Translations under genes and position numbers: made by a program
Shown here: piece after piece, positions 3-63,661 of the stretch
Layout: each line of letters starts with the position of its first letter
Numbering within the stretch: the first letter of the stretch is position 1
Assembly: GCA_033763315.1 (NCBI GenBank)
Contig: JANRKS010000005.1
Location: forward strand, 128,001-192,000
Reading direction: 5' to 3'
Length of the DNA stretch: 64,000 nucleotides
Source: Deltaproteobacteria bacterium
Lineage (GTDB): Bacteria; Myxococcota_A; Polyangia; Fen-1088
Notes under the pieces: model-generated
Told to the model about the DNA's origin: nothing
The model's database searches: none
The model's input: only the letters and a program-made list of their open reading frames with translations

Positions 3-1433
3 GTTCAGCAAAACGAGGCCGATGCGCACTACGCCGTGGCACTCGCCGTTGGAAAACAACTAACGGCCAGCGGCAGAGTGGCGGCGATGTTGGCGCCGTG
101 TGTTCCCACTGCTTCTGATAACTGCGTTGCCACGTTGATCGACCGGTTGGCGCCCCGGGTCCTAGGGCGCCCGCTTGCAAGCTCCGAGCGGAGTTTCTAC
201 ATGGGGATTGCCGGCACAGGGACTTTAGACACCATGGCACTCGGCGACATGTTGACGGTCTTATTCATGGCGCCGTCGATGGTCTTTCGCATTGAACACG
301 GGAGCGACACGAAGCTGCCCGACGGCCGCATTCGCTTGACGGACTACGAGCTGGCGCGGCGGCTTGCTTTACACTTGTGGCAGACGATTCCTGACGACGA
401 GTTGTGGCGCGCTGCCGAAGACGGCGCTCTGTCGAAAGACCAAGGCTACGCAGCCCAAGTGGATCGCATGCTCCACGACCCGCGGGCTCGGCAGGCCTCG
501 CAAGAGTTCATTCGCGAGTGGCTCAAACTTGACCACTACCCCGCTTTCCAAGATCTGGCGCAGAAGCCTCGCTATGTTGCGTTCGCGAGGGGTGCCTTGC
601 CAAGCGCGGGACTGCGGGACGCTATCACCCGTGAAGCCGTGGACATGGTCGACCACTATCTGTGGTCATCCGACGGGCATCTGGCCGACGTGCTTACATC
701 AAAGTTGGCGTTTCCTCGCTCGGTGGAGCTAGCGAAACTTTATGACTTGCCCGTATGGGATGGACAAGCGGATCCGCCTGAGTTTTCCGATCCCGATCGC
801 ACCGGCTTGCTCACGCGCGCAGCGATGCTCGCCACTTTGACGCCCAAGACGGTGGCACACGATGCCAGCACCCATCCCATCATCAAGGGCTTCTTTATCC
901 AGAAGTATCTGCTGTGTCGGGACTTCCCGCCGCCGCCTGCGAACGCAGGTACGCAAAACTTGGATGAGTTGAAGCCGGACATGAGTTCACGCCGCAAAGC
1001 TGAAGTGCAAACGGAGAGCTCGCCCAACTGTCGGTCCTGCCACGCGTTCATGAATCCCCTGGGCTATGTGACGGAAATGTTCGACTCGCTGGGGCGAAAA
1101 CGAGCAGAGGAAGTGGTGTTTGACGACCAGGGCAAGGAGCTGGCGCGCCGCCCGATCAACACGTTGACTACGCCAAGCTTGATCGACGGTGACAAGCGCA
1201 CCGTATCAACTCCGGCGGAACTTGTCGAAATGATCGAGCGAACGGGAGAAGCGGAGGCCTGCCTGGCTCGGAACTACTTTCGCTACACCATGAGCCGAGT
1301 CGAAGATCTTGACGCCGACGGTTGCTCCCTTGGGCGACTGAACAAAGCCTTAACCGATTCTGGCGGCGGCCTGCGGGCCATGGTGCGCCAAATGGTAACC
1401 GATTCGATGTTTAAGACCAGGAGCTTCCAATGA
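3..1433 (+). CDS. DUF1592/DUF1588/DUF1585-type (PSD/PSCyt) domain protein, 5'-truncated by the window edge
   Basis: Frame is open from position 3. Motifs YELARRLALHLWQTIPDDEL (DUF1592), GLLTRAAML, THPIIKG, CxxCH (NCRSCHAFMNPLG) and ACLARNYFRY. ATGA overlap with the DUF1552 gene. Confidence 0.85.
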   Translation, partial: VQQNEADAHYAVALAVGKQLTASGRVAAMLAPCVPTASDNCVATLIDRLAPRVLGRPLASSERSFYMGIAGTGTLDTMALGDMLTVLFMAPSMVFRIEHGSDTKLPDGRIRLTDYELARRLALHLWQTIPDDELWRAAEDGALSKDQGYAAQVDRMLHDPRARQASQEFIREWLKLDHYPAFQDLAQKPRYVAFARGALPSAGLRDAITREAVDMVDHYLWSSDGHLADVLTSKLAFPRSVELAKLYDLPVWDGQADPPEFSDPDRTGLLTRAAMLATLTPKTVAHDASTHPIIKGFFIQKYLLCRDFPPPPANAGTQNLDELKPDMSSRRKAEVQTESSPNCRSCHAFMNPLGYVTEMFDSLGRKRAEEVVFDDQGKELARRPINTLTTPSLIDGDKRTVSTPAELVEMIERTGEAEACLARNYFRYTMSRVEDLDADGCSLGRLNKALTDSGGGLRAMVRQMVTDSMFKTRSFQ

Positions 1434-3004
1434 CCACGACAAACCGATCGGCCCCAAGGGCGAATCGTCGACAAGTTCTCCGGGGAGCGGGCGGGTTTGC
1501 TTTGTCGTTGCCCTTTTTGCCTTCGCTGCTCCCACGGGCCATGGCGGCCCCGGTGCGAACGCCACGGTTCTTTCTGATGGCCACCGAGCACGGGGGCATT
1601 AAGAACGAGAACATGTTCCCTTCGGATGCGTCGCTGACCGACAAGAGTGAGCTGCGCCCCGGGCACCAGGTTAGCTACGGCAAGATCAAAGTGAGCACCC
1701 AGGGCAACGACGCCGTCGTCTCCGAGGTGCTTCGTGCCCCCGCCAGCAAGCTCAACCAGAGAATCGTCGATCGAATGAACGTGATGCGTGGCCTGAGCGT
1801 ACCGTTCGATCTGGGGCACAACACCGGCGGCGCCCTGGGCAACTACAACCGCACCAACAAAGAGCCGGCCAACCTACCCAGGCTCTACATTCCTACGATC
1901 GATCAGGTGATGGCGTGGTCGTCGTCGTTCTATCCCAACGCGGGCGCGATCCGGCAGCGCTCGATGCTCGTGGGCGAGGGCAACGGGTACTCGTACAACT
2001 ACGCAAATCCTGCCACGCGAACGGGCGAAGCCCAGGCGCAGGCGATCGAGCGCGACGCGCGGGTGATGTTCGACAAGGCGATTGGGCAGCCGATGGCGGG
2101 GCCCGCGCCGCGCAAGCCGGTCGTAGACAAGGTCATTGAAGAGTATCGATCGTTGCGCACGTCGAATCGTCGGTTATCACCCGGCGACAAGGTCACGCTT
2201 GACGCCTACATGCAGCGACTGTCCGAGATCGAGTCGCGGCTTGGTCAGCGGGTAGATTGTGGCAGCGCTACGCGCCCCGGCGTTGGTCAAGATTCCGATC
2301 CGCGCAAGTACTTCTCTACGCTGAATGACGTCATTGCCGCCGCGTTCATTTGCGGGTCCAGCCGTGTGGCCATCTACGGGATCACATCTCGTTTCGTGGT
2401 CAACACGCTGGGTGATTGGCATCAAGATGTGGCTCACGCGGCCAAGTCTGTGCCGGCGGCGCAGGAGCTGATCACCAGGTCGAACCGCGAAACCTTCAAC
2501 GCGACCATGCTCGACTTGGCAAACAAGCTCGACGTGGACAATGGGCAAGGTGGCACGTACCTGGACGATTGCCTGCTGGCGTGGGGGCAGGAATCGGGCT
2601 TTCCCTCGCACGACTACTCATCCACTCCTGTGGTCACCATTGGCGGCGCGGCAGGAGCATTCAATACGGGCCTGTATTGCGACTACCGCAACAAAACGCC
2701 GGGATACAGGCGCGAGGTTGAGTTCATTAACAACGTGCCGGTGTACGAATACGCTGGAATCCTGCACTCACAGTGGTTGGCCAGCGCGCTGAGAGCCATG
2801 GGCGTGCCGAAATCGGACTGGCCGAACGTCTCTGCCGACAACGCTGGCTACGGCGATGCCCGCGTTGGGTTTGGCTACGGCCGAACGATCATCGACAATA
2901 GCTGGAAGAAGGGGAGCGAGTGCTGCGGTTCCATCACTGACGCGAACCTGACCAAGATGATCGAGTTCGCGAACCAGCCGTTGCCCTTCATTGAGAAGGT
3001 TTAG
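1430..3004 (+). CDS. DUF1552 domain protein with Tat signal
   Basis: N-terminal NRRQVLRGAGG..LSLPFLPSL; DKVTLDAYMQRLSEIESRL helix; usual partner of DUF1592 proteins. Confidence 0.85.
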   Translation: MTTTNRSAPRANRRQVLRGAGGFALSLPFLPSLLPRAMAAPVRTPRFFLMATEHGGIKNENMFPSDASLTDKSELRPGHQVSYGKIKVSTQGNDAVVSEVLRAPASKLNQRIVDRMNVMRGLSVPFDLGHNTGGALGNYNRTNKEPANLPRLYIPTIDQVMAWSSSFYPNAGAIRQRSMLVGEGNGYSYNYANPATRTGEAQAQAIERDARVMFDKAIGQPMAGPAPRKPVVDKVIEEYRSLRTSNRRLSPGDKVTLDAYMQRLSEIESRLGQRVDCGSATRPGVGQDSDPRKYFSTLNDVIAAAFICGSSRVAIYGITSRFVVNTLGDWHQDVAHAAKSVPAAQELITRSNRETFNATMLDLANKLDVDNGQGGTYLDDCLLAWGQESGFPSHDYSSTPVVTIGGAAGAFNTGLYCDYRNKTPGYRREVEFINNVPVYEYAGILHSQWLASALRAMGVPKSDWPNVSADNAGYGDARVGFGYGRTIIDNSWKKGSECCGSITDANLTKMIEFANQPLPFIEKV

Positions 3005-3203: not shown

Positions 3204-4865
3204 TCAGCGCCTTCTCACAGCGCTCCAATCAAGCCGAAGTTGTCCATCCGTGAAAACGAGTGCCTTTTCGCTCAGGCCCGTTGAGCCGTTTGTGATTGAT
3301 TCGTGCACGTTGACGGCTGGCGCAAGCACGACGTCGCGCCCTTGTGCAAACGACTGCGTTTTCACCAACGCCCAATAGGCCTTGTCTAGGGCAAGCGCGC
3401 GGGCGCGCGACGGTAGCAGGAGTTGATCGATGCCCGCTTCACCAAGGTTTCGCACCTGCTCTTCGTTCAAGTCGCCGCCGGTGAAGAAGCGCTCCAAAAG
3501 TTCGGCGTTGCTGCGGAACTCATCACCGCCTTTCACGCGACGAAAGTACGTCAAGATCTCGGGCTCCTTGTGTTTAAGCTGCGGCACATCTGCGATGCCG
3601 CGAAGATCTTGATGCGCCCAACCTGCTTTGCCAGGAACCTTGCGTGGGAACGCGAACGTTTGGTCCAGCGTGATCCCGAGGTTTGTGTGGCAGCCCATGC
3701 AGAATAGATGTTCCTCATGCGTTTGCAGGCGAAGCCTGCCTTCGGCGTCTTCGATAAACCCTTGCAATCGCCAGCCGAAATCGTTTACGAAGCCTGCCAG
3801 CGGCTCACCTTGAACAACGGGCGGCTTTCCCTCCTCGCGTTCGTTCTGTTCGCGCTCGTAGTTGGATATGATCTTCCAGCGTTCAATATCGAACTGCTTG
3901 CGTGAGTAACGCAGCTCTTTGAAGCGGGTTGCGAGGTGGCTTGGAACGTCTGGATCCAAATAACGAACCGAATGGAGGAACTCCGTGCCTTCAGGATAAA
4001 GACTGCGCTGCACGGGAACGGAAGCCGCATCACCCAAGTATTGCGTGGGTAAGCCCCGAAGCTGGGTGGTCACGCCGCGCGCGCCGTCTTTGTTTAAGTC
4101 AACGCCCAGCTTGGTCTCGTCGAGAGGTTCGACTGTCCACGAAAGATCGGCTGCCAAAACATCTGGATCGCTTCCAAAGGACGCTTCAAGAATGGCGAGA
4201 TTCGCCTTGTACACTTCCGCATCAGGCTTGCCGTGGCTTTGGCCGAAGCGCTCGGGCAGCCGAATCATCACATCGTCTGTGGAACCATTCGTTGGCCAGA
4301 ACGGCCCTGGGAATGGTTTGTATCGAAACGCGCGCCAGCGGCTGCCGTCGCGGGCAAAACCCTCTTCATCGAAGCCTGTTGCAAAGTTGAGATCGGGCCG
4401 ATATCCCGAATAGTCGGAGCGCGATCGCAAGGCCTCTTGCAGGCCTGCGTAGTTGTCTTGTCGCACGTGACGAAGTACGGCTTCGTCTGTGATTTGCGCA
4501 GTGGCCTCGCGCCTATCTTCAAATAGGTTGCGCCAATGGTTTGTTAGCCCTGGCTCGCTAAACGCATATTCCTTCTGCAGGCGCCAATCGCTCATTAAAT
4601 TCGGAAAACGCGATTCACTGTGGCACGTCCAACATGGGTTGGACGCTCCGTCGGTCTTTGTGTAGCACTGTGCTGGAATGCCAGCCTCTACATTGCTCAC
4701 TTGACCACGCGTGGCAGCCGCGAGCGCGAGCGGGTCGTAGTCAAGCGCTTTTCGTTCACTTTGAGTAGGGGTGCCACCCGAGGGCGCGTCACAATGCCAA
4801 AGGCCCCAACCCGCAGCTAACGTGACAATCGGCAGGCCCGCGAGGAAGACTCGATGAAGTTTCAT
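3204..4865 (-). CDS. Exported diheme c-type protein, probably BthA-like (PhoX-linked bCcP/MauG superfamily)
   Basis: Signal-like N-terminus; two widely spaced CxxCH motifs (NPCWTCHS, FCMGCHT); 553 aa; 66 bp downstream of phoX on the same strand. The BthA assignment rests on size, heme count and context. Confidence 0.65.
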   Translation of the reverse strand: MKLHRVFLAGLPIVTLAAGWGLWHCDAPSGGTPTQSERKALDYDPLALAAATRGQVSNVEAGIPAQCYTKTDGASNPCWTCHSESRFPNLMSDWRLQKEYAFSEPGLTNHWRNLFEDRREATAQITDEAVLRHVRQDNYAGLQEALRSRSDYSGYRPDLNFATGFDEEGFARDGSRWRAFRYKPFPGPFWPTNGSTDDVMIRLPERFGQSHGKPDAEVYKANLAILEASFGSDPDVLAADLSWTVEPLDETKLGVDLNKDGARGVTTQLRGLPTQYLGDAASVPVQRSLYPEGTEFLHSVRYLDPDVPSHLATRFKELRYSRKQFDIERWKIISNYEREQNEREEGKPPVVQGEPLAGFVNDFGWRLQGFIEDAEGRLRLQTHEEHLFCMGCHTNLGITLDQTFAFPRKVPGKAGWAHQDLRGIADVPQLKHKEPEILTYFRRVKGGDEFRSNAELLERFFTGGDLNEEQVRNLGEAGIDQLLLPSRARALALDKAYWALVKTQSFAQGRDVVLAPAVNVHESITNGSTGLSEKALVFTDGQLRLDWSAVRRR

Positions 4866-4931
4866 GTGCTGTACAACGCAGAAGCCGCTGCGGCACCCCA
4901 GGGCCCCGCAGCGGCTTTAGAAGGTGCAATA

Positions 4932-7247
4932 TTAAGGTTGCGACCAGGGCCAGTTGCTAAAGCGCGATTCGCCAGGATGTTGGACGTTGAAGAACAACGT
5001 CCTTCCATCGGGCGTAAACGCGGGACCTGTGGCTTCAGAATCACTAGGACCTGCGACCACGCGGAAGCCACGGTGGGTGCCGTTGGCTAACGTTGTGCTC
5101 ATATCAACGAAGTACAACCCATCGCCTTGCGAACCGTTGACGCTTGGGTTTCCATCGGTGCCAAACCAAAGGTTGCCCTCGGGGTCGATTACCAAATTGT
5201 CGGGAGCGCCTGCGTCGAACGAACCCTTTTTGTTGTCGCCCAACCAAACGGCGTAAAAAGAGAAGGCACCGGTGTTAGCGAAGTCGTCCCCGGCTTCTTT
5301 CAATGCAAACACAGAGCCCGGCGCATCGTTGCGACGGTTCGCTGGTTCGCCTTGGGTTTCGCCACGTTTGGCCGCATTGTCTCGCTTGTCAAGCTTGCCA
5401 TCGGCAAACAAGAAATTGTTCCCGGTGTGATTCGTGAACGCGATGTACAGACGGTTGTCGAACGGACTCCACTCGATGTCTTCAGGTCGGTTCAGCTCGC
5501 GCACGCCGATCTTGTGTTCTGCCGTAAACAAGCTTTGCTTTACGGTGTTGTCGTTCGCGAAGCCGCCAAGATCGTTCCAAGTCATGCTCTTCAAAGCAGC
5601 GCCCACTTTCGTGCCAGCTCCCAAGGCCGCTGCGTTGGGGGCGTCGTCGGTTGTGTTGTCAACGCTCAGCAAGATCCATTTGCCGTTGCCCGGTGCTGCC
5701 GCCGATGGTGTGGTGCCGTTGTTGATCGTCTTGCCTGTGTTGTTATCGAGGTCAGCGAAGTGAGCCACATAGATGTAGCCGTCCGCCAACATGTCGCGGA
5801 TCTGCTTTTTGGTCATGCCGGTGGTGTAGTTGGTTTTGGAAACCCACTTATAAAGACGCCCGCCGCGGCGATCACTGGCTGCGTAGATCACGATGGGCTT
5901 TCCGTTAACGAGCTGCCAGCTGTTGTTGGTAGCCACCGAGGCGTTTTCCCAACGTGCGCGACCGAAGCTGCCGAGCTTTTGATGGCCTACGCCCATGTCG
6001 TCGTAGAACTTATCGGCTGGCTTGCCTGGATCGAATTCAACCAAATAGCCGTAGAAGTCTCGGTTGTTCTTGCCCTTCGACGACCGGCCAAAGTCGCTGC
6101 TGCTCGTGGGCGCCACGTTAAAGGTGATGTTTTTGCCTGCGTCGCAAACGCCACCAGGGATGAAGGTGTTGTTGCCGCTCCAGCAGTCTTCAAGATCGCC
6201 GTAGAAGTCCTGCACGTTCTCTTCTCCGCTCAAGACGGTTCCCCAAGGCGTGTGGCCTCCCGAGCAGTTGTTGCTGGTTCCCGCCACAACACCCGCGGGC
6301 AAGGCCGCGCCGTTGTCGTCCGTATTGCCCGCGGATAGGGTCATCCCTGTAACCTTGATCCGCGTTGCACTGGTCGCGTCGTATCGCACGTTAGCGGCGG
6401 CGCGATCGATCACCCACTGACCACTGGCAGGATCCTGAACTGTGCGGACCCATGAGCCACCTATTTGGCGTTTTACGCCTACAACAAATTGATCTACGGT
6501 CGCTTGTGTCCACGATGCGCCCGCGCCGATGTCGAAGTTCAACAAATTGCGTGAACGCATCCACTTCGCAAGCTTGGTGTACGACCCAGCCGGCGGAGTG
6601 TTGACGCCTGCGATGCTGCCCGAAACATACTCGTGGTTAACGAAGAACCAGCCTGAAGCGCTGCTGCCGCCGTAGAAGCCAGGCAACGTGCCGTCAGGAG
6701 TGTCTCCGAAGTAGGCGATGTAATCGTTGTTATCGCCGAAGCGGGGCGCCACTTTGCCGTCCTTTTCTTCAACGGAATCATCCCACGTCAAAGGCTCCAA
6801 CCATCGAACAACAACGTTCGATTGCAAACCTTTGATGGCCCTTACCGTGTCTGTGGACGCCGGTGCGAGTGGAAAGCCAGGCGTGCTGGTGGCGTTCGCG
6901 TTGTATTGCGCGACCAAAGCCTTGACCATCGTGGGGATGCTTTGTGTGCCATTCGCAACAACCGCCACCAATCCCGACACCGAGCCAATCTCAGCAAGCG
7001 ATGTGCCCGGGAGACCTGGGGCGCCCACTTCGCCTTGCGCACCTGCATCGCCCGCTGGGCCAGCGCTGCCTGGGGCGCCAGGAGCTCCAGGAGCACCTGG
7101 CGCTCCAGGCGTACCTGGTGCACCCACTGGCCCGACCGGCCCGGCGGCTCCTGGGTCACCCTTGTCGCCCGAACATGCACCAACAGCCAGTGTGCCCCAC
7201 AACGCCAAAGCGCTCGTTCCAAACTTTCCCGCAGTTCTTCGATACAT
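4932..7247 (-). CDS. phoX: PhoX-family (DUF839) alkaline phosphatase, lipoprotein with collagen-like N-terminal stalk
   Basis: PhoX motifs NHEY, NCSGGHTPWGTVLSGEEN, GRARWEN, RPEDI, PDNL, GTDG, EATG, NVQHP; lipobox-like AVGAC25; AGGAGG RBS upstream. Confidence 0.9.
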   Translation of the reverse strand: MYRRTAGKFGTSALALWGTLAVGACSGDKGDPGAAGPVGPVGAPGTPGAPGAPGAPGAPGSAGPAGDAGAQGEVGAPGLPGTSLAEIGSVSGLVAVVANGTQSIPTMVKALVAQYNANATSTPGFPLAPASTDTVRAIKGLQSNVVVRWLEPLTWDDSVEEKDGKVAPRFGDNNDYIAYFGDTPDGTLPGFYGGSSASGWFFVNHEYVSGSIAGVNTPPAGSYTKLAKWMRSRNLLNFDIGAGASWTQATVDQFVVGVKRQIGGSWVRTVQDPASGQWVIDRAAANVRYDATSATRIKVTGMTLSAGNTDDNGAALPAGVVAGTSNNCSGGHTPWGTVLSGEENVQDFYGDLEDCWSGNNTFIPGGVCDAGKNITFNVAPTSSSDFGRSSKGKNNRDFYGYLVEFDPGKPADKFYDDMGVGHQKLGSFGRARWENASVATNNSWQLVNGKPIVIYAASDRRGGRLYKWVSKTNYTTGMTKKQIRDMLADGYIYVAHFADLDNNTGKTINNGTTPSAAAPGNGKWILLSVDNTTDDAPNAAALGAGTKVGAALKSMTWNDLGGFANDNTVKQSLFTAEHKIGVRELNRPEDIEWSPFDNRLYIAFTNHTGNNFLFADGKLDKRDNAAKRGETQGEPANRRNDAPGSVFALKEAGDDFANTGAFSFYAVWLGDNKKGSFDAGAPDNLVIDPEGNLWFGTDGNPSVNGSQGDGLYFVDMSTTLANGTHRGFRVVAGPSDSEATGPAFTPDGRTLFFNVQHPGESRFSNWPWSQP
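6999..7169 (-). repeat. Collagen-like (Gly-X-Y)19 repeat inside phoX
   Basis: Residues 27-83 read GDK GDP GAA GPV GPV GAP GTP GAP GAP GAP GAP GSA GPA GDA GAQ GEV GAP GLP GTS. Confidence 0.95.
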
Positions 7248-7378
7248 TTAGCCTCCTAGTATTTGATCGCTAAGAGGCATCATGAAGGTCGCGGCGACGC
7301 GAACGAGTGGCAGGTTTGAAACGCTTCTGCTGCAGTCAGTTCACCGAAGCGTCGCAATCGTGTTTCAAGAAGGGCAGG

Positions 7379-7909
7379 GTGCGGTGTCGGCACACCATAG
7401 GGCTCTTCATTGCATTGCAGGCCGCGGCGTGTGACCCATCGGCGATGCCAATGCCAATCGCGCGAGGCGATGCGCCTGCTGATGGCGCCGTTGATCTGAT
7501 GATCGCAGGAGACGCTGGCGCCGATGCCGCTCTACACGAGGATGGCGTGGTGGTGATCGTTGATGCGCTCAGCGAAGCCGCAGATGCAGCAGTGCCCCCC
7601 GACAAGGTCGTGCAATCGTGCCTAGCGGCCGACTACGTCGATCGTACGCAAGTGGTGGCCGACCGCGTGCTGGCCTGGAGCCACGGCTTTAGCGATGACG
7701 AGCGATGCCTCGTGGTGCGCGTGGGTCAGACTGTCGTTTGGCAGGGCAGTTTGAGCACGCATCCACTTGATGCGGAGGGTGGCGATTCCCCCAACCCGAT
7801 CGTTTCGCACAGCGATGGCGTTGTGACATTTCGCAGCCCCGGCACCTTTGGGTACGTGTGTGGAGCCGCTCACGCAGGCATGTATGGCGCCATCCACGTT
7901 GTGCCCTAA
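7379..7909 (+). CDS. Cupredoxin (plastocyanin/azurin-like type-1 Cu) lipoprotein
   Basis: THPL His plus FGYVCGAAHAGM (Cys-His-Met loop); lipobox-like AAAC; acidic Ala-rich linker. Start uncertain (GTG 7379 chosen; the ORF is open from 7307). Confidence 0.75.
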   Translation: MRCRHTIGLFIALQAAACDPSAMPMPIARGDAPADGAVDLMIAGDAGADAALHEDGVVVIVDALSEAADAAVPPDKVVQSCLAADYVDRTQVVADRVLAWSHGFSDDERCLVVRVGQTVVWQGSLSTHPLDAEGGDSPNPIVSHSDGVVTFRSPGTFGYVCGAAHAGMYGAIHVVP

Positions 7910-34946: not shown

Positions 34947-36197
34947 TCAAAGAGCTGGCATGCCCGAAGCGATCGCGGCGTGAAGCGAGGCAATGCTGCG
35001 GGCACAATCTCGGGTGAGCGGGTTATCGGCGCGGCGCACGTAGCCGCCCAAAAGGGAAGTGAAGCGGCTCTTGATGCGCGCCAGCTTCTGCGGGTTGAAA
35101 AAAATATCCGGCAATTGCCCGTCATACCAACCGTTGACCATCGCGCGAAACACGGCCACGGCTTGCGCCATGGGCCCTGTGTAGCTCGCATCCCAGTCAA
35201 CCGCCTCGCCGCGCAAACAACGATCCACCAAGGCGGCGGACAACGTGGCCGATTCCAGCGCCAACGTGACGCCCGACGAGAACACGGGATCTAGAAAATC
35301 GCCCGCGTTGCCTGCAACAGCCCAACGCGTGCCGTGAAGCTTCGAATTCTTGGTTGAGTATTCGCGCAAGATTTGAGGCGGCAGTACGGGCTGCGCCGCC
35401 CGCAATCGGTAAGCGGCATTTGGATCGCGTTGCAGTTGGGTGAGCAACTTTTCCAAGGACGTGCCATGCAAAGCGTCCCAGTACGCCGGATCGCACACCA
35501 TGCCTACGGATGTGCGCCCGTTCGAGAATGGAATCAGCCACAACCAGCCATTGTCTGGATGGCAACACACCCAGATGTCGCCTTCCACATCGGCCCTAGG
35601 CCGGACGTCGCCTTCAAAGTGAGTGAAGCAGGCCACGCGCGCGGGCAAGCCGGTCGCTTCATCCAGCTTCAGCAGGCGCGCCAACACACGGCCATAGCCA
35701 CTGCAATCAAGCACCCACCGAGCGCGTAACGTTTGTGTTTGTTCCTTCCACAGATCTTTCACGGTGACTGCAGCACCGTCGTCAGCGAAGGAAGCTCCGA
35801 GCACCTCCTGGCCGAAGCGCACATCCACGCCTTGACGGCGCGCCTCTGTGGCCAGCGTTTGATCGAAGTCGTCACGCGGCACTTGAAATGTTGTGGGGCG
35901 ATCCCCTTCCAGAGCGTTGGCGAAGCTGAAACGTTCACGCTCGTCGCCGCGCAGAAAGAGGGCGCCCTTTTTCACCATGTAGCCGCGGCGTTCCACGGCG
36001 TCGAGCAAACCCAGCCCTGCCAACAGATCGTTTGCCCGTGGCAGCAGCGATTCGCCCACCACTTGGCGTGGGAAGTGGCCGCGCTCAAGGCACACCACCT
36101 TGTGGCTCTGCCTCACAAGGGCTACAGAAGCTGCTGACCCGGCGGGCCCTGCACCGATCACCAAGACGTCTGCGTCAAATGAAGGAGAGGCTGCCAT
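34947..36197 (-). CDS. Flavin-dependent halogenase-like oxidoreductase
   Basis: GAGPAG, GESLLP, GYMVKKGA (Lys), GWLWLIP (WxWxIP), FLDPVFSSG. Confidence 0.8.
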   Translation of the reverse strand: MAASPSFDADVLVIGAGPAGSAASVALVRQSHKVVCLERGHFPRQVVGESLLPRANDLLAGLGLLDAVERRGYMVKKGALFLRGDERERFSFANALEGDRPTTFQVPRDDFDQTLATEARRQGVDVRFGQEVLGASFADDGAAVTVKDLWKEQTQTLRARWVLDCSGYGRVLARLLKLDEATGLPARVACFTHFEGDVRPRADVEGDIWVCCHPDNGWLWLIPFSNGRTSVGMVCDPAYWDALHGTSLEKLLTQLQRDPNAAYRLRAAQPVLPPQILREYSTKNSKLHGTRWAVAGNAGDFLDPVFSSGVTLALESATLSAALVDRCLRGEAVDWDASYTGPMAQAVAVFRAMVNGWYDGQLPDIFFNPQKLARIKSRFTSLLGGYVRRADNPLTRDCARSIASLHAAIASGMPAL

Positions 36198-36320
36198 GTG
36201 CGCTCGCATATACGCCTGTGATGCGCCGTAAAATCAAGGGATTTTCTCTTGCGGGGCCGCGGCGCGATGGGCACAATCCAGCAACGATAAACCTGTTGTG
36301 ATGCGTCACAGGCCGCTTGC

Positions 36321-37244
36321 ATGAGTGGGGCTGCTAACGCGCACGTTGCCACCACCATGCAAGCAAGCGTTCCTCAACCTTCACACCCGTCGCCGTCGCA
36401 GCGTCCGCCTGCCGGCTTTGTGCAAGGCGTGCGTGTTGGCCTGTGTGGCCTCGCGTTTTTGGGCTTTGCGTTGGGCGGCGCTGTGTTGGCGTGGTTGGTT
36501 TTGCCGATTGTCGCGCGTTGGCCCGGCTCCTCGCAAGCGCAATCACGGAAACGCTGTCAGCGCGTGGTTCGCGCCGCGTGGATCTTTTTTCATGATTACA
36601 TGCGCGTGGTGGGTTTGGTGGCGTTCAACCACCGGCGCATGCGTCTGCCAGCCCATGCGCCCGCCGTGATCATCGCGAATCACCCCACGTTGATCGACAT
36701 CACGGCGCTCGTATCCGCGTTGGGGCCCGTGTGTTTTGTGGCCAAAAAGCCGCTGTTCAAGAATCCGATCTACGGCGCCTTGTTGCGCGCGTGCGGCCAC
36801 ATTGGCAGCCTGGATGCCGATGGCGATGAGGGCCAAAGCGCGCTCGATCAGGCTTTGGCGCGGCTAGCGGCGGGCCATAGCGTGCTGTTGTTTCCCGAGG
36901 GCACCCGATCGCCCGTGGGCGGTTTGGGCCGCTTCCGTATGGGGGCGTTTGCGCTTGCGCGGCAGGCTCAGGTGCCGCTGGTGGTCGTGAGCGTCACAGC
37001 CCGGCCGTTGGGTTTGAATAAGGGCGTGCCTTGGTACGCGATCCCCGCGCAAGCGATGACCCTGTCGCTCGAACACGAGATGACGTTCAACGATTGGTCA
37101 AGCATCCCTGATTTGCACGCCTTGGCCGCGTTGCGAACCACGATCAGACAGCGGTTGCTGGCCCGCGTGCACCCCGGCCCTGCGGCCGTTCCAGTGGCCG
37201 CGCCAGAATCTGTGCCAGGGACTTTGAATTTAACGCAGGCCTAG
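36321..37244 (+). CDS. Lysophospholipid acyltransferase family protein (ApeD-like)
   Basis: NHPTLID (HxxxxD), FVAK, FPEGTRS. Confidence 0.88.
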   Translation: MSGAANAHVATTMQASVPQPSHPSPSQRPPAGFVQGVRVGLCGLAFLGFALGGAVLAWLVLPIVARWPGSSQAQSRKRCQRVVRAAWIFFHDYMRVVGLVAFNHRRMRLPAHAPAVIIANHPTLIDITALVSALGPVCFVAKKPLFKNPIYGALLRACGHIGSLDADGDEGQSALDQALARLAAGHSVLLFPEGTRSPVGGLGRFRMGAFALARQAQVPLVVVSVTARPLGLNKGVPWYAIPAQAMTLSLEHEMTFNDWSSIPDLHALAALRTTIRQRLLARVHPGPAAVPVAAPESVPGTLNLTQA

Positions 37245-37273
37245 GCCGTTATTCGCTATACAGGACGCCGACC

Positions 37274-37579
37274 GTGCAATTGGAAGACCTAGAGGCTGAG
37301 TTGAAGGACTTAATCGTCGAGGCGTTGATGTTAAAAGACGTCAAGCCGGCGCAGATCAATTCTACCGAACCTTTGTTCGTAGAAGGACTGGGCCTTGATT
37401 CCATCGACGCGCTTGAACTGGGCCTCGCGATCGAAGGCAAGTGGGGTTTCAAGATCGGGGGGGATGAGGCTTCGGCCCGCAAAGCGTTTGCTTCCGTACG
37501 CAGCCTGGCCGCGTTCATCCATGACAAAATCAGCACGCAGCCGGCGTTGTCGGCTGCCCCCACGCCAGCTTCCACCTAA
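37274..37579 (+). CDS. Acyl carrier protein (ApeE-like)
   Basis: PLFVEGLGLDSIDALEL. Confidence 0.92.
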   Translation: MQLEDLEAELKDLIVEALMLKDVKPAQINSTEPLFVEGLGLDSIDALELGLAIEGKWGFKIGGDEASARKAFASVRSLAAFIHDKISTQPALSAAPTPAST

Positions 37580-37585
37580 GCCGCC

Positions 37586-37849
37586 ATGACACAAGCTGAA
37601 ATTTTCGACCGCGTGCAAGCGATGATGAACGAACTTTTCGAGTTGGATCGCGAAAAGATTACGCTTGAGTCACACCTCATCAACGACCTGGATCTCGACA
37701 GCTTGGACGCCATCGATATGGCGGTGAAGCTTGAAGAGATCACGGGTCACCGCGTGGCGGAAGAATCACTGAAGGCCATCCGCACCGTCGCCGACGTGGT
37801 GCATTTGGTGGACGGCGTGGTCAACGGCAAAACGTCGCCGGCTGGCTGA
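37586..37849 (+). CDS. Acyl carrier protein (ApeF-like)
   Basis: DLDLDSLDAIDM. Confidence 0.92.
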   Translation: MTQAEIFDRVQAMMNELFELDREKITLESHLINDLDLDSLDAIDMAVKLEEITGHRVAEESLKAIRTVADVVHLVDGVVNGKTSPAG

Positions 37850-37863
37850 TCGAGGCGGCCCGC

Positions 37864-38493
37864 ATGTGGAAGGCGATGGCTAGCGTCACAGGCGTGGTTG
37901 CGGCGCTGGCATACCCTGCATTCGTGTATGTCGGCCTCACGCGTTTTGGTTTGACGCGCGCCGTGTGGTTGGTGGTGATCGTCGCAGCGGTTTTGGCTGC
38001 GGCGCGCGCGCTGTCCCCCGGGCGGCGGCGTGTTGCCCTGTTGCTGGCGCCACCGCTGACGATGGCTGGGTTGGCTGTTCTTGGTGCATGGACGAAGCAA
38101 CCTCGGCTGCTGTTGGCCACGCCCACTTTGATCAATGGTTCGTTCTTGCTGACTTTCGGTGTCACCTTGCGGCCAGGGGCCCAACCGATCGTCGAACGTT
38201 TTGCGCGCATGCTGGATCCGGGGCTTACCGAGGCCGAAGCGGCTTATTGCCGGCAAGTCACGAAGCTGTGGTGCTGGTTCTTCGTGCTCAACGGCACTGC
38301 GGCGGCGGTGTTGGCTGTGGGTGCGCCGTTGTCGTGGTGGGCACTCTATACGGGGCTGCTTGCGTATGTTCTGATGGGCTTGCTGATGGCCGGAGAATAC
38401 GTTGTGCGGAAACGTCGCTTCGGAAAGTTTGGCCGCGGCCCACATGATCGCATGTTGGCGTTTCTCATGGCGCCACGGGCGGGCAGGTCATGA
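37864..38493 (+). CDS. COG4648 membrane protein (ApeG-like)
   Basis: PIVERFAR..YCRQVTKLWC..WALYTGLLAY..GEY. Confidence 0.85.
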   Translation: MWKAMASVTGVVAALAYPAFVYVGLTRFGLTRAVWLVVIVAAVLAAARALSPGRRRVALLLAPPLTMAGLAVLGAWTKQPRLLLATPTLINGSFLLTFGVTLRPGAQPIVERFARMLDPGLTEAEAAYCRQVTKLWCWFFVLNGTAAAVLAVGAPLSWWALYTGLLAYVLMGLLMAGEYVVRKRRFGKFGRGPHDRMLAFLMAPRAGRS

Positions 38494-40205
38494 GCACGTT
38501 CACGTTGCTATCGCCGCAACGTTCACAGCCCGTGGCGGTGGGCGATGGCGGTGCCAAAACCGCTCTCGAACTTTTGGCTCTGGCGCGGGCCGTTGCCAAA
38601 GCGCTGCCGCCGTCATCGCAAACCAAGCAAGTGGCGGTGGTGTGCCAGGATCGATTCCATTTTGCCGGGGCTGTTTGCGGCGTGTGGATGGCGGGGCACG
38701 TGGTGGCGTTGCTGCCCAACGATCGGCCCGCGTTGGTGGCTCAGGTGCAGGCGGCGCACACGCTGTTGGCGGTGGTGGGTGACGGGCAGGTGGCCGCCAC
38801 CATCGACGTGGCTACGTTGCCGTTGGCGCAGCCAAAGGAGGAAGAGCTTTGCTTTGAAGGCACGCGCGTGGCGGCCTGCATCTATTCATCTGGCTCAACG
38901 GGTGCTCCGGTGGCCTACGACAAAACCTTCGCGCAATTGTTGGGTGAAGCGCAGGTCTTGGCCGGCCTGTTTTCTTTGGGCGAAGACGGCGTGCTGCCCA
39001 CGGTTCCCTGCCAACACATCTATGGGTTTTTGATGGGTGTGCTCGCGCCGCTGTTCGCGGGCGCGGCCTTTGTGCGACAAACGCCTTTGCATACAACACA
39101 CATCATGCAAACGCTGACACAAACGCATGCCACTGTGTTGGTTGCCTCGCCCGCTCACCTTAAGGGCCTGGCGATTTTGTGCGCCGACGGTCCGGTGAGC
39201 TTGCCTCGGCTGCGGCAGATCGTTTCGTCAGGCGCGCCCTTGCCGCCTCATGACGCCCAGGCATTGTCAAAGGGCATGGGTGTGGACGTGACTGAATTGT
39301 TTGGATCCACCGAAACCGGCGGCATCGGTTACCGCCGGCCTCCCGCTTCTGCGTGGCAGCCTTTGCCCGGGGTGAGCGTGGCCACCGCCGCGGGGTTGGG
39401 AATGGATCACCTGCCCGCCGAGCGATTGCTCGTGCGATCACCTCACGCATGCGGCGCCGAAGAAGGTTGGTTCATTACGCAGGACATGATCGCGCTGGCC
39501 GATGATGGCAGCTTTGTTCACCTCGGCCGCAGTGACAGCGTTGTGAAGGTGGGCGGGCGCCGTGTGGATCTGGAGGCACTTCGGCAAGCGTTGCTGCGTG
39601 TGCCAGGCGTGGCGGACGCAGCGGTCGTAGGATTATCGGCGCCGCCGCCGCGCGATCTGGAGATTGGCGCGATCGTGGTGGCCCCGGTGGTGACACTGCA
39701 ATCAATGCGGGCGGCGTTGTTGCAAACGTTTGATCCTGTGGCCCTGCCTCGGCGGTGGCGGTTCGTCGAAGCCTTGCCTCACAGCACCAGCGGCAAACTG
39801 CCCCGAGCCCAACTTGTTTCGCTGTTCACCCCACACCCCGAGGCCTCCTCGCGCATCGGGTGCGAGACGCGATCGTGCACCTATGATGAGCCGACTGGCA
39901 CGCATCACATCAGCATTTTTGTACCTGAACACGCGTGGTTCTTTGGCGGACACTTCGATCACAATCCCTTGGTGCCCGCCGTGGTGCAAGTCAATGACCT
40001 GGCGCTGGCTCATGCACATCATTTGCATACAGATCTGCCGCCCTTGCGTCAGGCGAGCCGGCTGAAGTTCAAACACCCGATTCGGCCCGGCGATCTGGTT
40101 CAACTCACCTTGTGCCGCAAAGGCAGCCAAGTGGTGTTTGCGATGCGTGTGGGCGGCGTTGATTGTAGTGGCGGTGTGCTTGAGTTCGCGGAGGCCGGCG
40201 CGTGA
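38490..40205 (+). CDS. AMP-dependent acyl-ACP synthetase fused to a hotdog dehydratase (ApeH-ApeI-like)
   Basis: YSSGSTGAP, HIYG, SSGAPL, FGSTETGG, GRSDSVVKVGG; C-terminal FGGHFDHNPLVPAVVQ..LKFKHPIRPG. Confidence 0.88.
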   Translation: MSTFTLLSPQRSQPVAVGDGGAKTALELLALARAVAKALPPSSQTKQVAVVCQDRFHFAGAVCGVWMAGHVVALLPNDRPALVAQVQAAHTLLAVVGDGQVAATIDVATLPLAQPKEEELCFEGTRVAACIYSSGSTGAPVAYDKTFAQLLGEAQVLAGLFSLGEDGVLPTVPCQHIYGFLMGVLAPLFAGAAFVRQTPLHTTHIMQTLTQTHATVLVASPAHLKGLAILCADGPVSLPRLRQIVSSGAPLPPHDAQALSKGMGVDVTELFGSTETGGIGYRRPPASAWQPLPGVSVATAAGLGMDHLPAERLLVRSPHACGAEEGWFITQDMIALADDGSFVHLGRSDSVVKVGGRRVDLEALRQALLRVPGVADAAVVGLSAPPPRDLEIGAIVVAPVVTLQSMRAALLQTFDPVALPRRWRFVEALPHSTSGKLPRAQLVSLFTPHPEASSRIGCETRSCTYDEPTGTHHISIFVPEHAWFFGGHFDHNPLVPAVVQVNDLALAHAHHLHTDLPPLRQASRLKFKHPIRPGDLVQLTLCRKGSQVVFAMRVGGVDCSGGVLEFAEAGA

Positions 40206-40957
40206 GTTTTCGCCCGTGCGTTGTGATCCCCACTTACAACAACCCCGCCACGATCGCGAAGGTGGTGAATGAGGCACGCACGTTTGTGACAGACGTGATT
40301 GTGGTGGACGATGGCAGTGGGACGGCGGGCCGCGAGGCCACCGCCGCGCTGGCAAACGGGGGCATCGCGCAGGTCATCCACAGGGCTGCAAATGGCGGCA
40401 AGGGCGCGGCGGTCAAAACGGGAATCGCCGCGGCCGCACAGCAAGGCTTCACGCACGTGTTGCAAGTGGACGCTGACGGGCAACACAATCTGGCAGATGT
40501 GCCCAGGTTTTTAGAGCAAGCCCGCGCGCAGCCTGAGGCGTTGATCTTGGGTGAGCCGCGCTTTGACGCCACGGCGCCGAAGGCGCGCTTGTGGGGCCGC
40601 AAGCTCACGAACTTTTGGGTTCACATCGAAACGGCAGGTCGTGTGATCGCCGATCCCATGTGCGGTTTTCGTGTGTATCCCGTGGCGGCGGCGATGGCTG
40701 TCCTCCCTCGCGCGCAGCGCATGGATTTCGATCCCGAGGTTGCGGTGCGCTTGGTGTGGCAGGGCTTGCGCGTGGTGAACGTTCCCACCTCGGTGCGCTA
40801 TCTTTCTGCCGCAGAAGGTGGCGTTTCACACTTTCAGATGGGTCGCGACAACCTCCGTATCAGTTGGATGCATACGCGTTTGGTGTTTGGCGCGCTGGTT
40901 CGTCTGCTGACCGGGCGCAAATTGAGGAGCGAAGCATGGCGCGCGCTGCGTGGCTGA
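40202..40957 (+). CDS. Glycosyltransferase family 2 (ApeJ N-terminal half)
   Basis: VIPTYN, VVDDGS, GKGAA, DADGQH, CGFRVYP, GVSHF. Confidence 0.9.
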   Translation: MSFRPCVVIPTYNNPATIAKVVNEARTFVTDVIVVDDGSGTAGREATAALANGGIAQVIHRAANGGKGAAVKTGIAAAAQQGFTHVLQVDADGQHNLADVPRFLEQARAQPEALILGEPRFDATAPKARLWGRKLTNFWVHIETAGRVIADPMCGFRVYPVAAAMAVLPRAQRMDFDPEVAVRLVWQGLRVVNVPTSVRYLSAAEGGVSHFQMGRDNLRISWMHTRLVFGALVRLLTGRKLRSEAWRALRG

Positions 40958-41856
40958 ACGTGCGTGAACAGGGCAGCGTGCTTGGCATGCGCGTGCTGCT
41001 GTTTTTGTGCACGTCGTTTGGCCGTCCGCCGGCGCGCCTGTTGCTAAGGCTGATCGCGCTTTACTATGCCCTAGCGGCACGTGAGGCACGTCGCGCGTCC
41101 TGCCGTTACTTGCAAGCGGTGGGCATGGTGCCTTCGTTCAAGAATGTGTACACGCACGTGCTGCGCTTTGCGGAGGTGAGCCTCGATCGGTTGTTCTTCC
41201 TGCGCGGTAACTTTGCGCCGTTCGTGGTGAATGCCACGGGCCAAGAACACATCCTGCGGCTGCGGCAAAACAACCGCGGGGCCATCTTGCTTGGCGCCCA
41301 CCTTGGCAGCTTTGAAGCGATGCGGGCCGCGGGCAAAGATTTGCAAGCTCGCATCAATATCGTTGGTTACTTCGGCAACGCTCGCGCGGTGAACCGCCTG
41401 TTGGATCAAGGCAGCGGGGGCAACGTGGGCACGCGGCTCTTGGAGATCACGCCGGACTCGATTGACTTCATCTTCAAGGCGAAGGATCTGCTGGAAAAAG
41501 GCGAGATGCTGGCCATCTTGGGCGATCGCGTGGTGTCCAACCACGTGACGGAGGTGATGTTCTTCGGACGCAAGGCGCGGTTTCCCACGGGGCCCTTTGT
41601 TTTGGCCGCCAGCCTCAAGTGCCCGGTGTATCTCACGTTTGGGCTCTATTTCCCGCCCAACCGGTATGAGCTTCATTGCGAACCTTTCGCAGAATCCGTG
41701 CAGGTGCCGCGGGGCCGGCGGGCCGAAGCGTTGCAGGCGTACGTGCAAGCCTATGCGTTGCGCCTTGAGCATTATTGCCGGCAGGCCCCCTACAATTGGT
41801 TTAACTTCTTTCCCTTCTGGAGTGACGACAATGCCGACGACAGAGCTGACACCTGA
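40936..41856 (+). CDS. LpxL-like acyltransferase (ApeJ C-terminal half)
   Basis: AHLGSFE, LGDR, FPTGPF, PYNWFNFFPFW. Confidence 0.85.
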   Translation: MARAAWLNVREQGSVLGMRVLLFLCTSFGRPPARLLLRLIALYYALAAREARRASCRYLQAVGMVPSFKNVYTHVLRFAEVSLDRLFFLRGNFAPFVVNATGQEHILRLRQNNRGAILLGAHLGSFEAMRAAGKDLQARINIVGYFGNARAVNRLLDQGSGGNVGTRLLEITPDSIDFIFKAKDLLEKGEMLAILGDRVVSNHVTEVMFFGRKARFPTGPFVLAASLKCPVYLTFGLYFPPNRYELHCEPFAESVQVPRGRRAEALQAYVQAYALRLEHYCRQAPYNWFNFFPFWSDDNADDRADT

Positions 41857-43378
41857 TCGCGCCCCCGTGGTTGTGGGCGAACGCCCGTTGACCATCGAAG
41901 ACGTGATCGACCTGTCGCGTGGCAAAGCGCGTGCTGTGTTGGACGCAAGCCCCACGTATCTGGCGCGCGTTGAGCGCAGCCATCACTTGTTGACGGAGGC
42001 GTCGCTCTTAGGGAAGCCGATCTATGGCGTCAACACCGGCTTTGGCGTTTCGTGTGAAGTGGGCGTGGACGCCGACTGGATGGCACGCATGCCGATCAAC
42101 TTGGTGCGGTTTCACGGCTGCGGCGTGGGCGAGCCGCTCTCGGTGCAAGACAGCGCGGCCGTCGTGGCCGTGCGTTTGGCCAGCCTCGCGCGCGGTCATT
42201 CGGGTGTGCGCGTTGCGCTTTTGCAGCGCTTCGTTGATCTCCTGAACAATGGCATCGTGCCCCGCATCCCGTCGCAAGGTTCCGTGGGTGCCAGCGGCGA
42301 TCTGACGCCGCTTTCATATGTGGCGGCGGTGATCATGGGTGAGCGTGAAGCGTATTACCGCGGCAACTTGATGCCCGCGGGTCAAGCGTTGGCGTTGGCT
42401 GGCTTGACGCCCTTTGTGTTCGAGCCGAAGGAAAGCCTGGCGATCATGAACGGCACTAGCGTGATGACGGCGCTCGCGTGTGCCGCCATCGTTTCTGCCG
42501 AGCGTCTGTGCCGCCTCGCGGCCGCATGCACCGCGATGTTGTGTGAAGTGACCAACGGCAACCCATCACACTTTCACGAACGCATTTTTGCTTTAAAGCC
42601 GCATCCCGGGCAAACGCTGGCCGCGCGTTGGATTCGGGACGATCTGGAGGGCGCCCCCGCCACCAATGAGGGGCCACGCGTTCAGGACCGATACTCGCTG
42701 CGGTGCGCGCCCCACGTGATTGGCGTGGCGCTCGATACACTCACGTTTGTGCGGCAGTGGGTGCAAACGGAGATCAACGGCGTTAATGACAACCCCATCC
42801 TCGATCCCGAATCGGGAGAGGTTTTGATGGGGGGGAACTTCTATGGTGGCCACGTGGGGCAAGCCATGGACGCGCTTAAAACAGCGGTGGCCAGCGTGTG
42901 TGATTTGATGGATCGGCAACTCTTGTTGTTATGTGATCCACAAGCCAATGGCGGCCTGCCGCGCGATTTGGTGGCGCCAGTTGGGGCGGCCGCCACCGCA
43001 AACTTTGGCTTCAAGGCGATGCAGATCCTCACGTCAGCTTTGGCGGCAGAGGCACTGAAGTTGACGATGCCCGCCACGGCTTTTAGCCGCAGCACCGAAG
43101 GTCACAACCAAGATAAGGTCAGCATGGGCACGATCGCGGCGCGTGATTGCCAATCCATTGTGAGCCTCACCGAAACCTGTGCGGCGGCTTTGGTCTTGGC
43201 GCTGTGTCAGGCGGTGGACGTGCGCTGCAAATCGCCTGTTCGCGTGAGCACGCGTGCGCTTCACAAGTTCGTGCGGCAGCACATTCAAGCCGTTGATCAA
43301 GATCGCGGCATGGAAGCGGACATCCACGCGGTTGTGCGGTGGCTGCGCAACGATGAACTTCCGTTGGGGGCACCGTGA
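41831..43378 (+). CDS. MIO-dependent aromatic amino acid ammonia-lyase (HAL/PAL/TAL family)
   Basis: YGVNTGFG, GSVGASGDL (ASG), KESLAIMNGT, QDRYSLRC, NDNP, GGNF, HNQDKVSMG. Confidence 0.92.
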   Translation: MPTTELTPDRAPVVVGERPLTIEDVIDLSRGKARAVLDASPTYLARVERSHHLLTEASLLGKPIYGVNTGFGVSCEVGVDADWMARMPINLVRFHGCGVGEPLSVQDSAAVVAVRLASLARGHSGVRVALLQRFVDLLNNGIVPRIPSQGSVGASGDLTPLSYVAAVIMGEREAYYRGNLMPAGQALALAGLTPFVFEPKESLAIMNGTSVMTALACAAIVSAERLCRLAAACTAMLCEVTNGNPSHFHERIFALKPHPGQTLAARWIRDDLEGAPATNEGPRVQDRYSLRCAPHVIGVALDTLTFVRQWVQTEINGVNDNPILDPESGEVLMGGNFYGGHVGQAMDALKTAVASVCDLMDRQLLLLCDPQANGGLPRDLVAPVGAAATANFGFKAMQILTSALAAEALKLTMPATAFSRSTEGHNQDKVSMGTIAARDCQSIVSLTETCAAALVLALCQAVDVRCKSPVRVSTRALHKFVRQHIQAVDQDRGMEADIHAVVRWLRNDELPLGAP

Positions 43379-48914: not shown

Positions 48915-49369
48915 GCTTCACCTTGGGGTTGATCGGGTGGCACGAAAACGGTGAGATTTGCTGCCGCCACGGTCACGCCACCGCGTGTCACGATGCCTTG
49001 AAATTGCGCGCCTGCTTCGGCACCCCACAGGTGCGTGACTTGAACGATCAATTCGTCGCCTGACACGAAATCATTCACAAACAGATCCAATCGTCGCACG
49101 CCCACCAAGTAGCCAAGCTTTGGCTTCCGTAAAGACTCTGGATTCGCCTCTACGTTCTTGTCGGCGTGCAGGGTGGCGTAAGCGGCCACGCATTGGGCCA
49201 TGTACTCCATCGCCACCACCGCGGGCACGCGCCCTTGGCGCATGAACGGAGACGCGTGCGTAAGCTTTACGACACACGTGGCCGTTTTTTCGTCGTACGA
49301 CGCAAGCCCATCCAACAGCCGCATCGGTGGCTTGTGGGGTACGAGATTTTCGATGTTCAGCAAAGTCAC
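48911..49369 (-). CDS. Hotdog-fold dehydratase partner (ApeP-like)
   Basis: LVPHKPPMRLLD, EYMAQ, GYLVGVR; GTGA overlap with the CLF stop. Confidence 0.85.
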   Translation of the reverse strand: MTLLNIENLVPHKPPMRLLDGLASYDEKTATCVVKLTHASPFMRQGRVPAVVAMEYMAQCVAAYATLHADKNVEANPESLRKPKLGYLVGVRRLDLFVNDFVSGDELIVQVTHLWGAEAGAQFQGIVTRGGVTVAAANLTVFVPPDQPQGEA

Positions 49370-55533: not shown

Positions 55534-55539
55534 TACGGG

Positions 55540-63651: not shown

Positions 63652-63661
63652 CACGGGCCGC

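Follow-up and report, generated by a model that had tools for sequence, protein, structure and literature searches.

The window analysed here is a 64,000-nucleotide stretch of contig JANRKS010000005.1 from a deltaproteobacterium of the class Polyangia. It encodes a PhoX-type phosphatase (phoX, 4932-7247, minus strand, 771 amino acids (aa)) and, after a gap of 66 bp, a 553-aa exported protein with two CxxCH motifs (3204-4865, minus strand). These two genes very probably constitute a dedicated two-gene module, of which both are core members. The 553-aa heme protein is a member of the Aq_1262 family (PF27085) and, as predicted by structural modelling, is likely to form a physical complex with PhoX. 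Our best guess at what is new here is a diheme branch of the cytochrome P460/c'-beta fold that acts as a phosphatase partner, analogous to the diheme enzyme BthA. The original prediction had described a three-gene module consisting of PhoX, a BthA-like diheme enzyme and a divergent type-1 copper lipoprotein. All three open reading frames (ORFs) lie where it placed them, and phoX, the 66-bp gap and the exported protein with two CxxCH motifs are borne out by the ORFs and by motif conservation.

Gene neighbourhoods were compared in the best 80 of 589 genome matches of the heme protein, a sample that is biased to close relatives and includes 11 Sorangium loci. A phoX homologue flanks the heme gene in 60 of these 80 loci, directly upstream on the same strand in 59 and convergent in 1, and the stop and start codons of the two genes often overlap. 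According to their record titles, the loci span Myxococcota, Acidobacteriota, Chloroflexota, Planctomycetota and Gammaproteobacteria, and the computational comparison of sequences shows the phoX-heme gene pair to be conserved across phyla. Among the matches listed, the closest relatives of the module proteins are from Myxococcota. Shadow frames aside, no further neighbour cluster is common to more than 14 of the 80 loci. The other 20 loci comprise 5 that end before any upstream DNA, 3 from Nevskia with a PF04185 phosphoesterase directly upstream, and 12 with neither type of phosphatase. Both of the two Pseudoalteromonas plasmid loci examined (of four matches) carry a second, circularly permuted PhoX lipoprotein upstream, which has the last propeller blade at the N-terminus and the same collagen-like tether (L081:3906-5795). 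Some neighbours are restricted to parts of the sample: all 11 Sorangium loci carry a membrane H+-pyrophosphatase gene upstream of phoX (e.g. L052:388-2898). In addition, two phoX-less copies adjoin a convergent lipoprotein gene (L036:7546-9267 and L058:7621-9327) whose product has a PHP-like DxHxH motif, recognised by eye and without a Pfam match, and could be another phosphoesterase.

Domain fusions give a second view of the family's partners. In the 93 long relatives the fusion partner is PF04185 (9), PhoX (2), a cd1-like propeller (5) or a PD40 propeller (77); an alignment search for longer relatives in the range of 1279-3650 aa found none. One of the PhoX fusions (P0271), which consists of half a PhoX followed by a signal-like stretch, was discounted as probably chimeric. 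In a midpoint-rooted FastTree tree of 92 sequences, from which 18 redundant loci and short matches were left out, the phosphatase associations are found on different branches. The fusions to PF04185 group together in a single clade, and the Nevskia cases in another, nested clade, which points to two recruitments of PF04185. As judged from sequence, the Aq_1262 family is linked to three kinds of PhoX. The PD40-fused clade (77 of the 93), with named members in Desulfobacterota and Chromatiaceae, appears to be a separate system; its proteins P0273-P0361 combine the Aq_1262 domain with a third CxxCH and a TolB-like PD40 propeller, and H298 is often replaced.

The phosphatase itself is readily recognised. 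The window PhoX matches PF05787 (E 2.7e-63, 215 bits against a cut-off of 24) and the Pseudomonas fluorescens PhoX of PDB 3zwu (E 2e-31), and its N-terminus consists of a lipoprotein signal (Cys25) and a collagen-like tether that lead into the propeller. The residues E206, C328, E343, E434, D459, R587, E589, D683, D698 and E738 are each conserved in 56 of 56 aligned partner PhoX, and the metal-site motifs align with 3zwu, with E206 falling outside the printed alignment stretches. We presume the Fe/Ca ligand roles of these residues from the P. fluorescens structure. The window phoX is thus shown computationally to encode a tethered lipoprotein phosphatase with a predicted intact metal site. It shares the propeller family and the conserved metal-site motifs with P. 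fluorescens PhoX, but differs in being a lipoprotein with a collagen-like tether, in having no strict twin-arginine translocation (Tat) motif and in its linkage to a heme gene. PhoX of this type forms a distinct subfamily, to which the best plasmid PhoX matches are only about 23-31% identical. Typical PhoX is described as Tat-exported and folded with its iron and metals (PMC12594817). N-termini are intact in 55 partner PhoX, of which 51 are lipoproteins and 4 carry signals of the cleaved type, as tallied by regular expression plus inspection and corrected by eye for five truncated genes and L037. A strict Tat motif was found by regular expression in 1 of these 55; the signal of the window PhoX contains an Arg-Arg pair that does not fit the strict Tat consensus.

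The heme protein begins with a hydrophobic export segment. Its assignment to the Aq_1262 family rests on 55-85% identity to PF27085 proteins over more than 90% of its length, on the presence of PF27085 in 120 of 120 homologues listed, and on the ESM Atlas (Aq_1262 feature score 0.98, TM 0.91). The family is large, with 4,056 homologues among 8,000 candidates scored and 556 matching clusters at 50% identity, and a search of NCBIfam with the heme protein gave no match. A literature search for 'aq_1262' returned no paper, and no paper on the gene pair or on the function, fold or phosphatase link of the family was found in the open-access literature. The main text of a survey of Desulfuromonadia cytochromes contains no mention of P460, propeller or phosphatase. 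Aq_1262 is already a Pfam family and otherwise uncharacterised, and the Pfam description may itself mention the heme motifs or the fold.

From the composition of the 553-aa ORF about 0.002 CxxCH motifs are expected, compared to the two that are present: CxxCH 1 (C78-H82, 4620-4634, minus strand) and CxxCH 2 (C389-H393, 3687-3701, minus strand), the latter at the P460-type heme position. In a family alignment of 118 sequences, C78, C81, H82 and H393 are found in all 118, and C389 and C392 in 117. Cys67, in a PxQCY motif (4665-4667, minus strand), is likewise present in 117 of 118 and might serve as heme ligand, as third thioether or as redox thiol; the heme of CxxCH 1 is likewise putative. H298 (3972-3974, minus strand) is conserved in 114 of 118 and is Gln, Asn or Ser in part of the PD40-fused clade. 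As judged from the motif register, H298 probably occupies the position of the cross-linking Lys of cytochrome P460, and E317 and R319 would lie on the strand that follows.

The fold of the domain that carries heme 2 is very probably P460-like, as judged from AlphaFold2 models of high predicted local distance difference test score (pLDDT 93.9 for the whole heme protein and 95.5 for residues 140-424). The beta-sheet domain extends over residues of about 145-416 (3618-4433, minus strand), with large insertions, among them a DxxxDG loop near D256. When the core was compared to 48,161 chains with VIA-align, the top five matches were all cytochrome P460 or c'-beta (PDB 6hiu, 7s5o, 8brk, 2je3 and 6amg), with nearly the whole reference chain covered. 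The best match, 6hiu, gave a Z of 8.2 with a root-mean-square deviation of 3.5 over 132 aligned residues, followed by Z values of 7.8, 7.4, 7.0 and 6.2, and the first unrelated row stood at Z 4.5. With the whole model the same five chains were recovered at Z 3.5-5.1, and the top Foldseek match was again 6hiu (E 7.4e-3, prob 0.96). A Z near 8 is only middling by itself, but it is corroborated by the position of the CxxCH and by weak matches to PF16694, found at E<=0.1 (best 1.2e-5) for 49 of 76 relatives and located in the CxxCH-bearing half; the window protein itself is unmatched. The placement of heme 2 in a P460-type fold is based on these fold matches and PF16694 matches together.

Cytochromes P460 and c'-beta share the beta-sheet fold and the C-terminal CxxCH with the Aq_1262 protein, but they are mono-heme chains of 135-160 residues, whereas the latter has 553 aa, a second CxxCH, an extra Cys and large insertions. 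In cytochrome P460, Lys70 of NeP460 is the residue of the Lys-heme cross-link, according to the passages of a review on this family (PMC11928373), in which the words 'diheme' and 'fused' occur zero times. In contrast, the presumed cross-link strand of the heme protein (residues 295-303) contains no Lys. The gene company differs as well, being that of the nitrogen cycle for cytochrome P460 and c'-beta and that of phosphatases for Aq_1262.

Identity with BthA or MauG, as proposed in the original prediction, is rejected by sequence. A phmmer and profile search of PDB sequences found no relative of the heme protein at E<=10, while the same search with a true member of the bacterial cytochrome c peroxidase (bCcP)/MauG family, taken from a plasmid, recovered BthA (6nx0, E 1.5e-72) and MauG (about 1e-40). 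An hhalign comparison of the Aq_1262 family with this control gave a probability of 2.6%, with overlap limited to the CxxCH, and the listing of 25 families matched by 76 relatives lacks CCP_MauG. Structure searches with the whole model of the heme protein and with its core returned P460/c'-beta matches and no bCcP/MauG entry in any fold list, although fold lists alone exclude nothing. What BthA and the heme protein have in common, export and two CxxCH motifs, is not diagnostic alone. BthA itself is characterised by a six-coordinate His/Tyr heme (Tyr463) and by distal Glu, Gln and Pro at its five-coordinate heme, as given in the main text of its description (PMC6405878).

The interaction of the two module proteins was modelled with PhoX residues 120-769 and heme protein residues 55-404 (cut at residue 404), using own alignments. 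The complex reached an ipSAE of 0.78, whereas the best of three controls reached 0.00. A mark of 0.78 is attained by 116 of 157 solved complexes and by 2 of 215 mismatched pairs, counts that are only rough for models built with own alignments. At least 87% of contacts are common to the runs, the partner pLDDT is at least 74, and recall of a similar solved complex is unlikely because no solved sequence relative of the heme protein was found. The contact in the model adjoins the PhoX ligands E206, E343 and D698, which places it on the active-site face. Most of the predicted contact is made by an inserted helix and loop of the heme protein (residues 324-360, 3786-3896, minus strand) with W330 at its centre, and a second contact by the loop that follows heme 1 (residues 84-95). 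On the other side, PhoX residues G350, D351, E353 and W356, which are 95-100% conserved, touch the heme protein. The models thus support a heme protein that docks, by way of helix 324-360 and the post-heme-1 loop, onto the PhoX propeller at its active-site face.

The predicted interface also distinguishes homologues with and without phoX. At 38 interface positions, 14 phoX-less homologues that were absent from the modelling alignment have lost the PhoX-group consensus to an extent of 0.109, compared to 0.024 at matched positions (p about 0.006), a difference that is weakened by these 14 sequences not being independent, since 8 are from one clade. W330 follows the same trend and is conserved in 35 of 44 sequences, compared to 4 of 11, 0 of 3 and 0 of 9 in the other groups.

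The pair is probably a phosphate-starvation (Pho) operon, as suggested by the regions upstream of phoX. Of 55 regions upstream of phoX, taken from the window and 54 loci, 37 contain a 7-4-7 direct repeat that resembles PHO boxes (as defined in PMC4415409) at no more than 250 nt from the gene. Dinucleotide shuffles of the same regions contain the repeat with a mean of 6.1 and a maximum of 11, a comparison that is no probability because the loci are related. The repeat is found in 63 of 1,067 control windows, and other spacings give 3-17. In the window, a degenerate PHO-box-like 7-4-7 repeat with 12 of 14 pattern matches lies in the divergent promoter region (7350-7367, plus strand). A matrix built from the repeats found no clear site upstream of most stand-alone heme genes.

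As for function, we favour, tentatively, the reading that the heme protein oxidatively activates or maintains the metal centre of the phosphatase outside the cytoplasm, for which we infer every chemical step. Because the partner PhoX have no strict Tat motif, they seem to be exported unfolded, and the Fe3+/Ca2+ centre would then have to be assembled extracytoplasmically. The heme protein would bind the phosphatase and take electrons from the PhoX iron, with Fe(II) being oxidised to Fe(III) as the site is loaded or repaired. These electrons would pass from the PhoX iron to heme 1 near the interface and on to the P460-type heme 2, where a polar pocket of H298, E317 and R319, in their presumed placement, would hand them to O2 or H2O2. 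The cupredoxin would not be required for this path.

Several observations weigh against this reading or against parts of the evidence for it. On both proteins the predicted interface falls below the average in conservation (0.49 versus 0.70, and 0.58 versus 0.69), and a leave-one-out matrix found no significant PHO-like site in the promoter region of the window (p about 0.33). Arg-Arg pairs are present in several partner PhoX signals, so that Tat export is still possible for some of them. Among the 75 loci with upstream DNA, 12 have neither a PhoX nor a PF04185 neighbour, and PhoX-like genes occur on 119 plasmid records, whereas the Aq_1262 family occurs on only 4. Furthermore, in 82 of the 93 long forms the fused propeller is not a phosphatase (PD40 in 77, cd1-like in 5), which indicates that the family has uses without a phosphatase. 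On the chemical side, the oxidation of Fe(II) is spontaneous in alkaline air, and no redox step is known to be required by AcpA-type enzymes. Finally, recombinant Ramlibacter PhoX1 needed no such partner to be active in E. coli (PMC5768637).

Both the predicted docking at the active-site mouth and the occurrence of two unrelated phosphatase folds as partners would also be accounted for if the bound heme protein oxidised or reduced the phosphorus source, such as a phosphonate, phosphite or Fe(III)-bound organic phosphate, from which the attached phosphatase then released phosphate. The heme protein has many invariant Arg and Lys residues (e.g. R301, R314, K316, R319, K323 and R379) that could bind such an anion, but they could equally hold the four heme propionates. 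No conserved transporter or carbon-phosphorus pathway gene lies nearby and the PD40 fusions are left unexplained, and we regard this coupling to the substrate as unlikely.

Covalent tailoring of the partner is another way in which a diheme protein may serve a co-encoded protein. In the MauG-methylamine dehydrogenase-amicyanin and MbnH-MbnP systems, which resemble the present one in that a diheme enzyme acts on a co-encoded partner, MauG makes tryptophan tryptophylquinone and MbnH makes kynurenine in MbnP (parts of PMC11951088), and oxidation of the phosphatase PhosA by BthA was proposed by the authors of the BthA study (main text of PMC6405878). In PhoX, the invariant W356 in the predicted interface could be a target, the strong conservation of G350, D351, E353 and W356 at the contact would fit such a role, and the fused propellers could be further substrates. 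However, the Aq_1262 fold differs from that of the MauG and MbnH enzymes, no conserved Tyr ligand could be placed, and the conserved neighbours here include neither mau genes nor a cupredoxin. PhoX catalysis requires, to our knowledge, no protein-derived cofactor, and such tailoring seems quite unlikely.

The heme protein might also be a cytochrome of the Pho regulon that handles peroxide, NO or hydroxylamine and does not act on PhoX at all. P460 and c'-beta proteins handle NH2OH and NO (passages of PMC11928373), and stand-alone copies of Aq_1262 exist. Such a co-regulated detoxifier is very unlikely in view of a predicted complex that stands above all controls, of interface residues that are PhoX-specific and of the fusions between Aq_1262 and phosphatases. 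The same passages present c'-beta proteins as ligand binders rather than enzymes (PMC11928373), and the model puts the heme protein over the active-site face, as would be expected of a redox- or gas-sensing cap that opens and closes the phosphatase active site without turnover. The polar pocket residues are enzyme-like in their invariance across distant clades, and we give a regulatory cap only a slim chance.

Oxidative activation or maintenance of the phosphatase, as favoured here, can be compared to other diheme systems. BthA (BTH_II1092, PDB 6nx0) is also an exported diheme c protein encoded beside an exported phosphatase, with a function that its authors had not established. The neighbour named in the main text of the BthA study is a putative purple-acid or Ser/Thr phosphatase, phosA, and the word 'phoX' occurs there zero times (PMC6405878), so that the earlier statement that BthA is encoded beside phoX is not upheld. 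With its unrelated sequence, different fold assignment and different partner, BthA is at most an analogue of the Aq_1262 protein, and the earlier analogy is right in spirit and wrong in homology. The idea of redox-assisted phosphorus scavenging stands in so far as an exported heme protein is paired with a phosphatase, for which the evidence is the synteny (60 of 80 loci), the fusions, the repeats that resemble PHO boxes and the modelled complex; the BthA identity and the cupredoxin role that came with it do not.

The PF04185 domain that is fused to Aq_1262 matches AcpA-type genes on 231 plasmid records (4 via the heme domain). A bCcP/MauG gene, encoding a cytochrome c peroxidase, is divergently adjacent to the AcpA gene in 3 of the 4 plasmid loci examined, and the one product tested is BthA-like; in the fourth locus, from B. 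cenocepacia, no bCcP gene was found within 3 kb. The divergent pairs of AcpA and BthA-like peroxidase come from Burkholderia, Rhizobium and Ralstonia (L083:2319-5539, L084:2410-5443 and L085:1307-5054), and PHO-like repeats are present in the two intergenic regions scanned (L083 and L084). Neither the 80 Aq_1262 loci nor the window yielded a bCcP gene. With bCcP genes beside AcpA and Aq_1262 beside or fused to phosphatases, two unrelated diheme families adjoin exported phosphatases, and the Aq_1262 protein may be a non-homologous stand-in for the BthA-type peroxidases found beside other exported phosphatases. It is conceivable, although doubtful, that exported phosphatases of several unrelated folds (PhoX, AcpA/PlcH-type and purple-acid-type) need an extracytoplasmic heme-enzyme step that was solved twice, by BthA-type bCcP/MauG enzymes and by Aq_1262 as a diheme elaboration of the P460 fold with a His pocket.

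The third gene of the original prediction encodes a type-1 copper cupredoxin lipoprotein (7379-7909, plus strand) that is a neighbour and not a conserved member of the module. It is divergent from phoX as described, and its ligands, aligned to plastocyanin, are intact (H152, C185, H189 and M192 in the numbering of the ORF starting at 7307), although the family match is weak (plastocyanin 1bxu, E 0.045; PF00127, E 0.12, below the Pfam cut-off). Its ESM Atlas neighbours are Myxococcota copper-binding proteins, with TM values of 0.5-0.6 to PF00127 clusters. The likely start is GTG 7379 rather than 7307, giving an 18-aa lipoprotein signal, a protein of 176 aa and a divergent gap of 131 bp; the Atlas record starts still later. 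A homologue was found in 1 of the 80 loci, the nearest one (L001), where it lies on the same strand as phoX, 176 bp upstream and separated from it by a PHO-like triple repeat, and a plasmid search found none. L008 has a distant cupredoxin-Calx-beta gene divergent from phoX, so that a cupredoxin stands beside phoX in 2 of the 55 phoX loci with upstream DNA. The neighbourhood survey thus upholds phoX with the heme gene and not the cupredoxin, which was rejected as third member; the conserved module has two genes and does not include the cupredoxin, which may have a local role. An enzyme of the BthA/MauG family served by the cupredoxin as a dedicated electron carrier, suggested by the two CxxCH motifs and by the adjacency here, in L001 and, as a distant domain, in L008, is highly improbable given the P460-like fold, a search that finds BthA with the control and not with the heme protein, and the rare and flipped cupredoxin.

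The 66-bp gap between phoX and the heme gene contains a perfect 12-bp inverted repeat without a U-run (4882-4917), read from the sequence, which could be an mRNA stabiliser or attenuator; it is not among the terminators listed by the terminator scan, and the sigma-70 and terminator scans as a whole gave results at chance level. A DUF1592/1588/1585 and DUF1552 gene pair (36-3004), of a kind common in myxobacteria, is convergent with the phoX-heme module. Further along the window lie a type II polyketide synthase/aryl-polyene-like cluster (34950-51293), a fusion of Rieske and cytochrome b-c domains (55504-57836) and a DUF7133/HEAT protein carrying a CxxCH (61186-63708). The cluster contains a flavin-dependent (FAD) halogenase-like gene and genes for an acyltransferase, an acyl carrier protein, an AMP ligase, a glycosyltransferase, an aromatic amino acid lyase, a LolA-like protein, ketosynthases and an ApeP dehydratase.

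Taken together, a fold, a partner and a docking site can now be proposed for a large unannotated heme family, and the P460 fold is extended from small mono-heme proteins of the nitrogen cycle to a phosphorus-linked diheme form. Since the same genomic slot appears to be occupied by a non-homologous heme protein, the function of BthA becomes approachable by analogy and, if the common heme-enzyme step is real, the PhoX-Aq_1262 pair would be a tractable system in which the role of BthA also comes to light. Among environmental phosphatases PhoX is a major one, and a heme partner, if true, would make the recycling of organic phosphorus redox- or iron-dependent. The pairing hints at an unrecognised redox step in the microbial harvest of phosphorus.

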